Source of the DNA: Elusimicrobiota bacterium
GTDB lineage: Bacteria > Elusimicrobiota > Elusimicrobia > UBA1565 > JACRDR01
Direction: 5' to 3'
DNA length: 64,000 bases
Assembly: GCA_041694815.1 (NCBI GenBank)
Contig: JBGFSC010000021.1
Location: forward strand, 1-64,000
Notes under the pieces: generated by a model
What the model was told of the DNA's origin: nothing
Database searches by the model: none
Seen by the model: the letters and a program-made list of their open reading frames with translations, nothing else
In this document: in pieces, positions 1,432 through 5,367 of the stretch
Position numbering within the stretch: the stretch's first letter is position 1
Layout: each line of letters starts with the position of its first letter
Position numbers and translations under genes: made by a program

Positions 1432-1504
1432 GAGCCCGTAGCTCAGTTGGTAGAGCACCTGACTTTTAATCAGGTTGTCGTGGGTTCGAGTCCCACCGGG
1501 CTCA
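1432..1504 (+). tRNA. tRNA-Lys(UUU)
   Basis: Canonical cloverleaf; anticodon arm CCTGA-CTTTTAA-TCAGG; GTTCGAG T-loop; TATAAT at 1417-1422 upstream. Confidence 0.97.
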
Positions 1505-1526: not shown

Positions 1527-1598
1527 GGCCCTATCGTCTATCGGCTAGGACGCGTCCCTTTCAAGGACGAAAGAGGGGTTCGACTCCCCTTAGGGCCA
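1527..1598 (+). tRNA. tRNA-Glu(UUC)
   Basis: Acceptor GGCCCTA/TAGGGCC; anticodon arm CGTCC-CTTTCAA-GGACG. Confidence 0.95.
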
Positions 1599-1616
1599 TT
1601 CTTAACCGTCTATCAG

Positions 1617-1644
1617 GGAACTAATTCTTTGCTCGTTCGTATAT
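1617..1644 (+). promoter_or_regulatory. Putative ECF-sigma promoter of atypical tRNA 1
   Basis: GGAACT(1617-1622)-N15-CGTATAT(1638-1644); same boxes and spacing at 2952-2925 on the minus strand. Confidence 0.65.
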
Positions 1645-1654
1645 TAATTAGACC

Positions 1655-1725
1655 TGCGGGGTAGTTCAACGGTAGAACGGTCGACCGTCAATCGGACAAT
1701 GTGGGTTCGACTCCCACCCCCGCAG
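1655..1725 (+). tRNA. Atypical tRNA, anticodon GUC (Asp) on a tRNA-Asn-like body
   Basis: Acceptor TGCGGGG/CCCCGCA, G73; D arm GTTC/GAAC; T arm GTGGG-TTCGACT-CCCAC; loop CCGTCAA has C33 instead of U33; weak anticodon stem. Confidence 0.8.
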
Positions 1726-1731
1726 CGTCCA

Positions 1732-1771
1732 GAAAGCCGCAATTTCCGTAACGGTCGATATTGCGGCTTTC
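1732..1771 (+). other. Trailer hairpin of atypical tRNA 1
   Basis: GAAAGCCGCAAT/ATTGCGGCTTTC 12-bp inverted repeat with a 16-nt loop partly complementary to the anticodon arm. Confidence 0.75.
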
Positions 1772-1778
1772 GGCCTTC

Positions 1779-1807
1779 TTGACCACTATAGAAGAGTCTG
1801 CTAAGCT
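1779..1807 (+). promoter_or_regulatory. Sigma70-type promoter of small RNA 1
   Basis: TTGACC-N17-TAAGCT with TG extended -10. Confidence 0.7.
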
Positions 1808-1813
1808 ATTGCT

Positions 1814-1868
1814 GACGGTCGACTTGTTGAACTACCGGGCCCCGGGCAACCGGGGCCTTCGTTTTTCT
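1814..1868 (+). ncRNA. Small RNA antisense to atypical tRNA 1
   Basis: 1813-1823 complements tRNA 1680-1690; 1826-1836 complements tRNA 1660-1670; ends in GGCCCCGG-GCAA-CCGGGGCC plus T-tract terminator. Confidence 0.75.
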
Positions 1869-1964
1869 GTGGCGAATAGCGTGCCTTACTCCGGACGCAG
1901 CGATTTCCGGCTGCGACCCAATGCCTTCAGACAGTTGTATAATGACGGGTCGCAGCGCCCAGGC

Positions 1965-2312
1965 ATGGACATCCGACTCGTTAAAACGCCCATCCCCTTT
2001 TCGGAAGTCGCGCAATTCGCCAAAAGCCAGTTCGGCGAAATGATCAAGGCGACGGTCGACGTCCAACGGGCGGTATTGGCCCTCGGGGGAGAGCTCCATT
2101 CCGACGAGGAGGCCCTATTGATCGAGGACGGCTCCAGGCAAGAGGATCTCTGGGGAATCAACATTTACCCGGAACAGTCCGGAGAGGATCGAGTCGAATT
2201 CGACTCGATGATCAACGTCAGGCCCTCGCAAAATAACCGCTCCCGCGGCGTGGAGAACGCCGAAACGAGGGCGCGCATCCTGGAAATCGTCGGCCGACTG
2301 CTCCTCTCCTGA
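1965..2312 (+). CDS. DUF5674-like hypothetical protein
   Basis: Recognised motifs KATVDV...GGELHSD.E..L...GS.QEDLWGINIYP...FDSMINVRPSQNNRSR; ATG at 1965; TATAAT about 22 nt upstream. Confidence 0.75.
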   Translation: MDIRLVKTPIPFSEVAQFAKSQFGEMIKATVDVQRAVLALGGELHSDEEALLIEDGSRQEDLWGINIYPEQSGEDRVEFDSMINVRPSQNNRSRGVENAETRARILEIVGRLLLS

Positions 2313-2843: not shown

Positions 2844-2913
2844 CTGGGAGGCCGGGATTCGAACCCGGATAGGCTGTTTGAGAGGCAGCTGTCTTACCGT
2901 TAGACGACTCCCA
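2844..2913 (-). tRNA. Atypical tRNA, anticodon CUC (Glu) on a tRNA-Gln-like body
   Basis: TGGGAG-TC-GTCT-AACGGTA-AGAC-A-GCTGC-CTCTCAA-ACAGC-CTAT-CCGGG-TTCGAAT-CCCGG-CCTCCCA-G; 5' acceptor strand one nt short; C:A mismatch closes the anticodon stem. Confidence 0.78.
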
Positions 2914-2924
2914 GACCCACCTCG

Positions 2925-2952
2925 ATATACGAATAACTCCGCAAAAAGTTCC
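2925..2952 (-). promoter_or_regulatory. Putative ECF-sigma promoter of atypical tRNA 2
   Basis: GGAACT-N15-CGTATAT on the minus strand. Confidence 0.65.
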
Positions 2953-3072: not shown

Positions 3073-5367
3073 ATGAAAATAAGAATCCACTTCCTGTTTA
3101 TATTCGGCTCCCTTTTATTCGGCCTTCTGCAACGCGGCGACGCCCTAGTCCCAAAGACCTGCAACGATGAATTCGCTCGCGGCGTCCGCGCGGGCGCCAA
3201 TACGCTACTTGCATTTAATGTTTCTGGAGAGGAGATATACAACGCGTTTGCCAGCGGAACTCAAATTGAATTTGACCTAGAAAGACAGTATGGCCTTCCC
3301 GAGCATATCCGTCAAAGTCTGCCCGCCGTCTTTGTGATGGCGCTGCACGATGACGAATATTACCAAGGGGTACTACGGTGCCTCGATGCGAAGGGCTATA
3401 AGACCGATAATCTCGTCGCATGGGTTAAAAAATATCGGGATTACACCACCTCGGCGGAAATCAAACAACGCTTGGAGGAGTTGAAGCACCTTCAAGCGCC
3501 AAAAATCGCCGACGTAGCCTTTGATGGTCGCCATCTGACTGCTGAGGAGGCAGCGGCCGTGGCCGCAGGCGCCGAGGGTGGTAAAACACCGAGCCTAAAC
3601 GAATTCTCAATCGACCTGACTTCCATGGCCGCCCAGGGGAAGCTCGACCCGATCGAGGGCAGAAAGAACGAAATCAAGGCATTGGTCCAGATCCTGCTCC
3701 GCCGCAGCAAGCCCAACGCCGTGTTGATCGGCGAGCCGGGAGTCGGCAAGACCGCCATCGTCGAGGGCCTCGCCCAGAAGATCGCCGCCGGCGAGATCCC
3801 GGAACTTGCCGGAAAGCGCGTGATGCAGCTCAACATCGGAGCGCTCATCGCGGGGACGAAATACCGCGGGGAATTCGAAGAACGGGTGCAGAATATCATG
3901 AAGGAACTTAAGGCCAGCCCGGACACCATCGTGTTCATCGATGAGTTCCACACCATCATGGGCGCCGGCGCCGCGGAGGGCGCCGTCGACATCTCCAACC
4001 TGCTTAAGCCAGCGATGGCCCGCGGGGAGATCCAGATCATCGGCGCGACAACCTTGGACGAATTCCGCCGCTTCGTCGAGAAGGATGGGGCCTTGGCTCG
4101 GCGCGTGGAAGGGGTGCGGGTGGACGCCCCGACGCCCGAAGATACCCTCGCGATTCTTAAGCGCCTCAAACCGAATTACGAAAAGCACCACAAGGTGAGC
4201 TACAGCGACGCCGCGCTGGAGGCCGCCGCCCGCACGGCTCCCCGCTACCTGCCGCAGCGGCAGCTGCCCGACAGCGCCATCGACCTGATGGACAAGGCGG
4301 GAAGCCTCGCGCGCACCGCTAAAAAAACCGTAGTCGAAGAGGAGGATATACTGGCCATCCTCGCGCAGATGACCGGAATTCCGGTCGACAAGCTCAGCGT
4401 CGACGAGCAGGAACGGCTGGTCCGCATGGAGGAGCACCTGCGCAAGCGGGTCAAGGGGCAGGAACACGTGATCAAGGCGGTTTCGGAAGCGGTCCGGAGG
4501 GCTTATGCGGGGCTGCGGGTCTCGCAGGGCCCCTTGGCCAGTTTCGTCTTCTTGGGACCCACCGGCGTCGGGAAAACGGAGCTCGCGAAAGCCCTGGCCG
4601 AATTCCTTTTCGGCACGGAAAAGGCGCTTATCCGCGAGGACTTGACGAATTACATGGAGCAACATTCCGTCTCAAAGCTTATCGGCTCGCCTCCCGGCTA
4701 CGTCGGCTACGAGGACGCTCCCTTTACCGAGCGGGTGCGCCAGAAGCCGTTTTCGGTCATCCTGCTCGACGAGCTCGACAAGGCGCATCCCGCGGTGCTC
4801 AACATCCTGCTCCCGGTATTAGACGACGGACATCTGACGGACAGCCATGGCAAGACCGTCGATTTCAAGAACACGATCATCATCATGACCTCCAATCATA
4901 TGAGCCAGGCCTTTTTCGCGAAGAAGACGAAATCAGTGGGCTTCCAAAAAGCCGAGCCCCCCGCGCCGCCTAAGGCGGCAAGCAAGGAAGCGATCGTGGC
5001 CGGCTTTAAGAGTTTCCTTAAACCCGAGCAGTTTAACCGCATCGACGAGGTCGTCGTGTTCAATACCTTGACGCCGGAGATACTCGAGTCCATCCTGGAC
5101 CAAATGATCTCGTCGTTCGTCGCGGAGCTGGAGAAAACGAAGAAGGTCCGCTTAGAAGTGAGCCCGCAGGCGCGGGCATTCCTTATCCAACAGGGCTACG
5201 ACCCCGAATTGGGCGCCCGACCAATGCGCCGGGCGATCCAGACCCAGCTTCTGACGCCGCTGTCGATGGAGATCCTAAAGCCCAAGCACGGCTCGCATCT
5301 TGTCGCCAAGCTCTCGGAGGACGGCGGCAGGATCGTGGTCGTCAGCACGGATGGAGGGCGTCAATGA
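3073..5367 (+). CDS. ClpA/ClpC-type double AAA+ ATPase with a signal peptide and non-canonical N-domain
   Basis: Walker A GEPGVGKT and GPTGVGKT; Walker B FIDEFH and LLDELDK; pore loops KYRG and GYVG; SVGF loop; GARPMRR; no M-domain. Confidence 0.92.
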   Translation: MKIRIHFLFIFGSLLFGLLQRGDALVPKTCNDEFARGVRAGANTLLAFNVSGEEIYNAFASGTQIEFDLERQYGLPEHIRQSLPAVFVMALHDDEYYQGVLRCLDAKGYKTDNLVAWVKKYRDYTTSAEIKQRLEELKHLQAPKIADVAFDGRHLTAEEAAAVAAGAEGGKTPSLNEFSIDLTSMAAQGKLDPIEGRKNEIKALVQILLRRSKPNAVLIGEPGVGKTAIVEGLAQKIAAGEIPELAGKRVMQLNIGALIAGTKYRGEFEERVQNIMKELKASPDTIVFIDEFHTIMGAGAAEGAVDISNLLKPAMARGEIQIIGATTLDEFRRFVEKDGALARRVEGVRVDAPTPEDTLAILKRLKPNYEKHHKVSYSDAALEAAARTAPRYLPQRQLPDSAIDLMDKAGSLARTAKKTVVEEEDILAILAQMTGIPVDKLSVDEQERLVRMEEHLRKRVKGQEHVIKAVSEAVRRAYAGLRVSQGPLASFVFLGPTGVGKTELAKALAEFLFGTEKALIREDLTNYMEQHSVSKLIGSPPGYVGYEDAPFTERVRQKPFSVILLDELDKAHPAVLNILLPVLDDGHLTDSHGKTVDFKNTIIIMTSNHMSQAFFAKKTKSVGFQKAEPPAPPKAASKEAIVAGFKSFLKPEQFNRIDEVVVFNTLTPEILESILDQMISSFVAELEKTKKVRLEVSPQARAFLIQQGYDPELGARPMRRAIQTQLLTPLSMEILKPKHGSHLVAKLSEDGGRIVVVSTDGGRQ

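Follow-up and report, generated by a model that had tools for sequence, protein, structure and literature searches.

The first 64,000 nt of contig JBGFSC010000021.1 of an Elusimicrobiota bacterium (the whole stretch analysed, henceforth called the window; contig C15 of the host genome G000, which comprises 2.77 Mb at 63% G+C in 54 contigs) carry, at positions 1655–1725 of the forward strand, a tRNA gene that combines the aspartate anticodon GUC with the terminal pair U1:A72. An earlier reading of the letters (the original prediction) had described this gene as a tRNA with an Asp anticodon on an Asn-like scaffold. The following features were located around it (R1 is the covariance model of the tRNA family described below; ECF, extracytoplasmic function):

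1432–1504, forward strand: housekeeping tRNA-Lys(UUU), directly upstream, the genome's only copy
1527–1598, forward strand: housekeeping tRNA-Glu(UUC), directly upstream, the genome's only copy
1616–1621, forward strand: −35-like element GGGAAC of the ECF-sigma type, from motif conservation
1638–1642, forward strand: −10-like element CGTAT, separated from the −35-like element by a 16-nt spacer, with 13 nt between CGTA and tRNA position 1
1655–1725, forward strand: accessory tRNA of 71 nt with anticodon GUC, U1:A72, G73, C33, and a 7-nt D-loop, without an encoded CCA
1732–1771, forward strand: hairpin with a 12-bp stem starting 7 nt after the tRNA (downstream 65 nt at −22.6 kcal/mol, z −2.6, RNAfold)
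1837–1868, forward strand: terminator-like G+C-rich hairpin (1837–1858) followed by a T run (consensus scan)
2844–2913, reverse strand: second tRNA of the family type with anticodon CUC (Glu), U1:A72, and G73 (Rfam RF00005 45 bits, R1 59.7 bits)
2927–2952, reverse strand: ECF-type motif of the CUC tRNA (GGAAC at 2952–2948, CGTAT at 2931–2927)

Structure and identity marks of the GUC tRNA

The pair U1:A72 is formed by T1655 and A1724 and is followed by G73 (G1725), as read from the sequence. The D region is TAGTTCAACGGTAGAACGG, and the anticodon loop CCGTCAA consists of C32, C33, the anticodon G34 U35 C36, A37, and A38. In the class I cloverleaf drawn by ARAGORN, the acceptor stem is paired at 7/7 positions, the D stem has 4 pairs, and the T stem is paired at 5/5 positions; the anticodon stem contains G27.A43 and U28.G42, and the variable loop has 4 nt. 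The gene was called as tRNA-Asp(gtc) at 1655–1726 by ARAGORN, and Rfam model RF00005 matched 1655–1725 with 58.7 bits (gathering score 29, E-value 4e-10). All marks named in the original prediction, i.e., U1:A72, G73, the D region, the loop, and the G:A and U:G pairs of the anticodon stem, were seen in the sequence, and the drawing bears out its perfect acceptor and T arms. The loop had further been described as two T>C changes away from that of tRNA-Asn, which agrees with the loop CTGTTAA of the genome's own tRNA-Asn, and C33 had been singled out as unusual. In fact, U33, which marks elongator-type tRNAs by the U-turn before the anticodon, was present in 47 of the 48 genome tRNAs called by ARAGORN, the window tRNA being the sole one with C33. 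When the unmodified RNA was folded to its minimum free energy, the D and anticodon arms were lost and only the acceptor and T arms were kept (z −1.77); since this fold misses the full cloverleaf, the backing for the cloverleaf comes from covariation, not from folding energy. The C at position 1654 can pair with G73, as had been predicted, though there is nothing special in this: a pyrimidine at position −1 was found in 7/8 canonical G73 tRNAs of the genome, and position −1 could pair with position 73 in 13/45 canonical tRNAs. A tRNA-His-like eighth pair C(−1):G73 was hence dropped, as the general pyrimidine preference at −1 accounts for C(−1).

The window tRNA is an extra gene beside canonical tRNAs for both aspartate and asparagine, which are encoded in G000 at C6:44457–44532 (tRNA-Asp) and C13:562–633 (tRNA-Asn). 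The separate normal tRNA-Asp, whose presence had been left to be checked, has G1:C72, G73, an 11-nt D-loop, and an encoded CCA, and the normal tRNA-Asn has U1:A72, G73, a 7-nt D-loop, and the loop given above. Near full length and at 85–100% identity, the canonical tRNA-Asp type occurred in about 75 of the 101 genomes analysed from the order, and a canonical-Asp match of any kind at E ≤ 1e-8 in 93 of them, the short ones among which may be other tRNAs. The window tRNA is thus not the ordinary tRNA-Asp of the lineage, which is of the G1:C72 type; to our knowledge, G1:C72 is described as strictly conserved in bacterial tRNA-Asp. Among the marks of tRNA-Asp, the window tRNA carries the GUC anticodon with G73 and, from the set of extended D-loop with 20A, G49.U65, and G51:C63, the last only; U1:A72 takes the place of the G1:C72 of the canonical tRNA-Asp, pair 49:65 is G:C, and pair 2:71 is G:C. 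Among the marks of a tRNA-Asn that serves as substrate of GatCAB, U1:A72 and a D-loop without 20A are present, and the GUU anticodon and A51:U63 are replaced by GUC and G51:C63. By its sequence features alone, the window tRNA fits a hybrid-identity pattern, in which an Asp anticodon is joined to the GatCAB recognition set.

With the tRNA-Asn of the lineage, as with the canonical tRNA-Asn of bacteria that use an aspartyl-tRNA synthetase (AspRS) of the non-discriminating type and GatCAB, the window tRNA has in common U1:A72, G73, a short D-loop, and G49:C65. It differs from it in the anticodon (GUC instead of GUU), in pair 51:63 (G:C, as in tRNA-Asp, instead of A:U), in the variable loop (4 instead of 5 nt), in the type of promoter, and at the 3′ end, where its gene lacks the CCA that most tRNA-Asn genes of the order carry as part of a final GCCA. 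Of the 47 tRNAs detected by Rfam in the genome, U1:A72 was found in five, namely tRNA-Asn, two tRNA-Gln, and the two odd tRNAs of the window. The top-scoring canonical tRNA under family model R1 was tRNA-Asn (72.7 bits, compared to 44.5 bits for canonical tRNA-Glu and 42.3 bits for canonical tRNA-Asp), with these scores being a rough substitute only for tRNAscan-SE isotype models. In raw identity, Gly(UCC) came closest among the genome's tRNAs (56/68 positions), and tRNA-Asn reached 48/68. Hence, the Asn-like scaffold of the original prediction holds for U1:A72, G73, the short D-loop, G49:C65, and the R1 score, and does not hold for the variable loop, pair 51:63, and raw identity; because Gly(UCC) is nearer by identity than Asn, "Asn-like" is true of functional marks and not of ancestry.

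The accessory tRNA family and its putative promoter

Homologues were retrieved via BLAST at 78–88% identity (41 relatives), all with the U1:A72 body and all but one with GUC. In a first alignment of eight homologues, 94% of cells were paired and nine pairs had changed on both sides, with none of 500 shuffles scoring as high. Covariance model R1 was built from this alignment and run over 101 genomes of one Elusimicrobiota order, and the best hits were checked with ARAGORN; as hits below about 68 bits were left uninspected, the resulting count is a lower bound. Family members were verified in at least 23 of the 101 genomes, several of which carry three to five copies, and the window tRNA reached the second-highest R1 score of all hits (91.7 bits). 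Within the taxonomic family of the host, members were found in G000 alone among six genomes. From an even sample of the phylum (151 genomes), 26 of 38 not-yet-examined hit loci were inspected; one held a member from outside the order (G110), and the other 25 were ordinary tRNA-Asn. When 57 matches (55 distinct) were aligned on R1, 95.9% of cells were paired, and 19 of 21 pairs had changed on both sides (193 such cells); none of 500 shuffles was as high, and sliding of the partner strand lowered pairing to 40–52%. This alignment was fitted to the model, so that the structure is somewhat favoured in these figures. The original prediction had argued against random decay, and the homologues indeed hold the cloverleaf by compensatory changes. 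The family is selected and accessory, probably functional, and, from its promoter motif, putatively regulated separately. Neither the family, its Glu-anticodon members, nor the promoter motif described below figured in the original prediction.

Features were tabulated for 59 sequences, which remained after eight canonical or unrelated tRNAs and two same-place duplicates had been dropped from 69 aligned rows:

Anticodon: GUC 41, CUC 10, UUC 3, GAU 2, GUA 1, GCU 1, CCA 1
Pair 1:72: U:A in 53
Pair 2:71: G:C in 55
Position 10: G in 59
Position 32: C in 57
Position 33: C in 27, U in 31, A in 1
Position 37: A in 55
Position 73: G in 46 (38 of the 41 GUC members), with A73 mostly in members with Glu, Ile, and Tyr anticodons
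D-loop: 7 or 8 nt
Variable loop: 4 or 5 nt

Anticodons for Asp (41) or Glu (13), i.e., the two amino acids that GatCAB amidates, are thus carried by 54 of the 59 sequences. A73 was found in both GAU members, in the GUA member, and in 6 of the 13 members with Glu anticodons. In the T stem, G49:C65 was present in 44 and G51:C63 in 49 of 55 members. The second tRNA of the window (2844–2913) has one G fewer on the 5′ strand of the acceptor than its homologues L100 (G097) and L073 (G082), as well as a C31.A39 mismatch; it is followed by a downstream hairpin, and a canonical tRNA-Glu(CUC) is present on contig C54 of the same genome.

The usual ECF consensus is GGAAC/CGT. A motif of the form GGAAC-N16/17-CGTA, ending 10–16 nt (mostly 13–14 nt) before position 1, was found in 47 of the 55 distinct members and its CGTC variant in three further ones; the member from outside the order has TTGACA-N17-TATAAT instead. 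Among the 45 canonical tRNAs of the host genome, none had the motif within the 60 nt searched upstream, whereas both odd tRNAs of the window do. The motif also stands, with the same 16-nt spacing, directly upstream of the genome's ECF sigma gene (Sigma70_r2 and r4_2 domains), which lies at C36:17575–18114 and is followed by a zf-HC2 anti-sigma gene and then by a MucB/RseB/LolA-like gene. Homologues of this sigma factor (34–61% identity) were found in 100/101 genomes of the order, and the motif preceded all 12 of the best orthologue loci inspected. Judged by its bipartite motif (−35 element with AAC and −10 element with CGT, 16–17 nt apart) and by the occurrence of this motif in front of the sigma gene, the promoter of the window tRNA is putatively of the ECF-sigma type. 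Self-regulation is common among ECF sigma factors and is a standard route to their motif, and near-consensus promoters are needed (PMC7776599).

A strict scan of the genome for the motif yielded 14 sites, compared to about 13 expected from composition alone. Around ten of the 14 have an extended form (GGGAAC...TCGTAT) and lie in front of genes; sites of this form in G000 are at C8:701, C11:4597, C18:11097, C18:54971, C20:13108, C21:58991, C21:60780, C38:10032, and C52:11329. The genes behind them encode a BrnA-like antitoxin, an ORF6N protein, an HI1420-type antidote, a helix-turn-helix protein, an HNH endonuclease, an MT-A70 methylase with a BglII-type endonuclease, and an amine oxidase. Since the same promoter form precedes antitoxin, HNH, and restriction-modification genes, the putative ECF regulon would be rich in accessory and conflict genes. 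Hairpins comparable to the one downstream of the window tRNA appear to be common in the family: for 35 of 54 members, a folding energy of −18 kcal/mol or lower was obtained from the 65 nt behind the tRNA.

Proposed charging and amidation, and rival explanations

Neither an asparaginyl-tRNA synthetase (AsnRS; best score in the genome 83 bits, cut-off 342.6) nor a glutaminyl-tRNA synthetase (GlnRS; best 63.5 bits, cut-off 425.8) was found in the genome, in which a single bacterial AspRS (716 bits), a single glutamyl-tRNA synthetase (GluRS; 544 bits), GatB (573 bits), and GatA (630 bits) were detected. The AspRS gene lies at C22:28862–30610 of G000, and gatA and gatB are located at C24:11693–13081 and C24:13550–14998, respectively. 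Asn-tRNA and Gln-tRNA are therefore made by the indirect route, and the AspRS and GatCAB route envisaged in the original prediction is in place. A tRNA dedicated to the synthesis of free asparagine is unlikely, as three AsnB-type asparagine synthetases scored above the cut-off.

In bacteria, GatCAB recognises U1-A72, and tRNA-Asp is kept out by G1-C72 and the extra D-loop nucleotide U20A (PMC1635274). The anticodon is irrelevant to the enzyme: tRNAAsn(C36), i.e., with GUC, was aspartylated and then amidated with a kcat/KM of 1.35, compared to 0.53 for the wild type, and tRNAAsp(U1-A72, deltaU20A) was amidated with a kcat/KM of 0.25, while wild-type tRNA-Asp was not amidated (PMC1635274). The same source limits the U1-A72 start to Asn and Gln tRNAs, one tRNA-Thr excepted, and predicts that Asn-tRNAAsp binds EF-Tu well, leading to misincorporation. 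Strong aspartate determinants are G73, G34, U35, C36, and C38 (review PMC9976931), of which the window tRNA carries all but C38, as does the genome's canonical tRNA-Asp. For EF-Tu, tRNA-Asp binds strongly via G49-U65 and G51-C63 and tRNA-Asn weakly via G49-C65 and A51-U63, and for the Asp form of a tRNA-Asn with G51-C63, binding falls below that of Asp-tRNAAsp by a factor of about 100 (Roy et al. 2007, PMC1904265). The canonical Asp/Asn pair of the genome obeys this T-stem rule, and the window tRNA, like most family members, shows a mixture of the two states; weak EF-Tu binding of the Asp form would leave time for amidation.

Taken together with the Asp or Glu anticodons of 54/59 members and with a GatCAB identity set borne by organisms dependent on this enzyme, these rules point to Asn-tRNA(GUC) and Gln-tRNA(YUC) as candidate products. 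The window gene would be transcribed from its own ECF-sigma-type promoter by the sigma factor of the sigma/zinc-finger anti-sigma/RseB-like module, as suggested by the motifs, and the transcript would be trimmed and receive its CCA post-transcriptionally. The single, necessarily non-discriminating AspRS would then load aspartate, because of G34 U35 C36, G73, and G2:C71, as predicted from the published identity rules. GatCAB may subsequently turn Asp into Asn to give Asn-tRNA(GUC), because U1:A72 and a D-loop without 20A are the two features that bacterial GatCAB reads; the in vitro precedent consists of engineered equivalents from other bacteria. After delivery by EF-Tu, GAC and GAU would be read as Asn at some level, probably held low by C33 and the weak anticodon stem, and the CUC and UUC members would follow the same route from Glu to Gln. 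That the window gene is a functional accessory tRNA under ECF control that ends as Asn-tRNA(GUC), with CUC and UUC members ending likewise as Gln-tRNA, is proposed tentatively, its chance being put somewhat short of even; the cell may be using a tRNA of mixed identity to swap amino acids on purpose. The wider scheme, in which an envelope-stress-type ECF sigma factor drives a small regulon of hybrid tRNAs that yield Asn-tRNA(GUC) and Gln-tRNA(CUC/UUC) via the ordinary AspRS or GluRS and GatCAB, so that the proteome is partly recoded from acidic to amide residues under stress, is considered doubtful; if true, it would represent inducible programmed mistranslation without a dedicated synthetase.

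The accuracy of bacteria using the indirect route is attributed to the restriction of U1:A72 plus a short D-loop to Asn and Gln tRNAs, and here a conserved and selected family breaks this rule in organisms that depend on it. If its members are amidated, housekeeping enzymes alone would carry out a natural acid-to-amide recoding under a stress sigma factor, which would be a new route of regulated mistranslation and a simple system for asking whether mistranslation is adaptive; if they are not, the GatCAB of this lineage must read a yet-unknown determinant.

Several observations weigh against amidation and decoding as proposed. The GatCAB rules stem from Neisseria, Thermus, and Staphylococcus and not from the phylum of the host, and AsnRS is present in 8/23 family-bearing genomes. 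A link between the family and absence of AsnRS was rejected, as the trend (8/23 bearers with AsnRS vs 50/78 others) is weak and confounded by relatedness. Position 38 of the window tRNA is A rather than the aspartate determinant C38, although the canonical tRNA-Asp of the genome has A38 as well. Six of the 59 members lack U1:A72, and five have anticodons on which GatCAB has no bearing (Ile, Tyr, Ser, or Trp). G51:C63 (49/55 members) is the tRNA-Asp state, so that EF-Tu might take some of the Asp form before amidation. C33, the weak anticodon stem, and the energy fold without a cloverleaf may indicate poor decoding or no role at the ribosome, as may pair 27:43, which is unpaired in 30/55 distinct members. 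A consensus scan found no terminator-like site between the end of tRNA-Glu (1598) and position 1655, so read-through from tRNA-Lys and tRNA-Glu is possible and expression may not be restricted to stress. Finally, toxin-antitoxin, restriction-modification, and HNH genes share the promoter class, which fits a role in conflict equally well as mistranslation.

The first of the rival explanations, unlikely though with a real chance of being correct, is a conditional spare tRNA-Asp that still delivers Asp, either because GatCAB rejects it by an unknown feature or because EF-Tu takes it first, and that would add to or replace Asp/Glu decoding when the ECF sigma factor is active. The Asp identity elements GUC, G73, and G2:C71 as well as the tRNA-Asp-like G51:C63 are compatible with this, the tertiary-core nucleotides are kept in the alignment, and the discriminator follows the anticodon (G73 in 38/41 GUC members), which suggests charging by the anticodon-matching synthetase. 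However, U1:A72, found in the genome otherwise only in Asn and Gln tRNAs, is kept in 53/59 members, and engineered tRNAs with the same combination were amidated near or above the level of wild-type tRNA-Asn (PMC1635274). Moreover, G49:C65 lacks the U of strong EF-Tu binders, and with a canonical tRNA-Asp at hand there is no evident reason for a spare on a GatCAB-type body.

We consider it quite improbable that the tRNA is instead kept for a role outside decoding, be it as a decoy or back-up that withstands nucleases in conflicts with toxins or phages or as an amino-acid donor for a tRNA-dependent transferase, with position 33 relaxed. Such a role would account for the mixed state of position 33 (C 27, U 31, A 1 of 59, compared to U33 in 47/48 genome tRNAs) and for the promoter class that is shared with BrnA-like and HI1420-type antitoxins, ORF6N, the HNH endonuclease, and the MT-A70/BglII pair. 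Phage tRNAs with altered anticodon loops have been proposed to escape host anticodon nucleases (PMC10264068), and in a scan of viral contigs at least three phage tRNA-Asp on ordinary G1:C72 bodies carried C33 in the loop CCGTCAA (L143, L158, L165; IMG/VR contigs). The 77 short-D-loop GUC tRNAs found among the 87 stretches of that scan nevertheless included no family member, as none had the family acceptor by eye, and a phage origin was accordingly rejected. An escape from colicin E5-type nuclease through C33 was likewise ruled out, as this enzyme needs only a pyrimidine at position 33, so that C33 gives no protection (PMC1635277). C32, A37, and A38 are retained together with the complete elongator core, and no partner gene adjoins the members: an all-against-all BLAST of open reading frames from 51 loci yielded no recurrent one, and the neighbours are syntenic housekeeping genes at the level of the lineage (a glycosyltransferase, a HEAT-repeat protein, and a dihydropyrimidine-dehydrogenase-like protein with a CN hydrolase).

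It is very improbable that the window copy alone is decaying into a pseudogene while the rest of the family functions: this copy does combine the weakest features (C33, G27.A43, U28.G42), its neighbour at 2844–2913 is one acceptor nucleotide short, and some relatives are broken by a 66-nt hairpin insert, but it has the second-highest R1 score of all hits, perfect acceptor, D, and T stems, and an intact promoter motif and downstream hairpin, and both C33 (27/59) and an unpaired 27:43 (30/55) are common in the family.

Known systems and further observations

The closest equivalents are the engineered Neisseria meningitidis tRNAAsn(C36) and tRNAAsp(U1-A72, deltaU20A) (Bailly et al. 2006, PMC1635274), which resemble the window tRNA in GUC, G73, U1:A72, and the missing 20A. 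Those were laboratory mutants for identity mapping, whereas the window tRNA is natural, belongs to a conserved family, and has a putative promoter of its own, its amidation being a prediction; beyond the constructs, the family has C33 in about half of its members, a 4-nt variable loop, and G51:C63. Natural bacterial hybrids of anticodon and recognition with a likewise patchy distribution are known in tRNAProX/ProRSx of Streptomyces and Kitasatospora (Schuntermann et al. 2023, PMC10404621), for which a deliberate and possibly beneficial mistranslation was proposed. tRNAProX usually lies beside a dedicated synthetase isoform and inserts Pro, its mistranslation having been demonstrated; the window family has no linked partner gene, and its switch is predicted, via housekeeping AspRS and GatCAB and under ECF-type control. 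The nuclease-escape tRNAs of phages (van den Berg et al. 2023, PMC10264068) are also extra genes with off-consensus anticodon loops. Unlike those, the family sits on chromosomes among syntenic housekeeping genes and did not turn up in the viral scan, and nuclease escape would leave U1:A72 unexplained.

The literature searched yielded neither a report of natural tRNAs that combine U1:A72 with an Asp or Glu anticodon nor one of tRNA genes under ECF control; judging by a single search, an ECF-type promoter in front of tRNA genes seems to be without earlier description. The bacterial mistranslating tRNAs listed in the covered portion of a 2024 review are Sec/Cys hybrids and tRNAProX, with no Asp/Asn kind (PMC11415595), and GUC is mentioned in the covered text of Mukai et al. 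(PMC5389517) only among allo-tRNAs, which are of a different structure.

At the locus itself, a DUF5674 gene (1761–2312, forward strand) lies between the two odd tRNAs. As its Pfam match begins at residue 73, the actual start probably lies past the terminator-like hairpin. Beyond both odd tRNAs follows a gene for a ClpA/ClpB-type double AAA+ ATPase (3073–5367, forward strand). Elsewhere in G000, ARAGORN called a tRNA-Met at C54:94489–94564 (reverse strand) that was not found by Rfam and agrees with the initiator tRNA of contig C25 in its 3′ half only; this is probably a fragment of a tRNA, e.g., an integration scar.

Four family tRNAs carry a 66-nt insert, a pair of 33-nt hairpins that occupies a shared T-loop position behind TTCG (L054:2335–2472, reverse strand, L007, and L237 in G023; L072:2569–2706, forward strand, in G085). 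The 33-nt unit is a dispersed and mostly intergenic repeat, with 22 copies in G023, 13 in G085, and none in G000, G088, and G095, and looks like a repetitive extragenic palindromic (REP)-like element that sometimes lands in T-loops. Irregular accessory tRNAs adjoin family members at L008:988–1060 (G016), L040:1771–1843 (G088), and L017:640–713 and 2404–2478 (G010), including a tRNA-Val(GAC) with C33 and U37 and two tRNAs with a short variable arm, the Ser anticodon GCU, and U1:A72. Within the same order, arrays of 10 to 23 tRNA genes per 1–2 kb, many with odd stems or loops, were seen at L010 (G024), L028 (G013), and L030 (G005). In many members (e.g., L003, L043, and L048), a leader GGACY is complementary to a trailer GTCC, which lengthens the acceptor helix of the precursor; at the window tRNA this match is partial (1651–1654 with 1725–1730, GACC with G-C-GTC).

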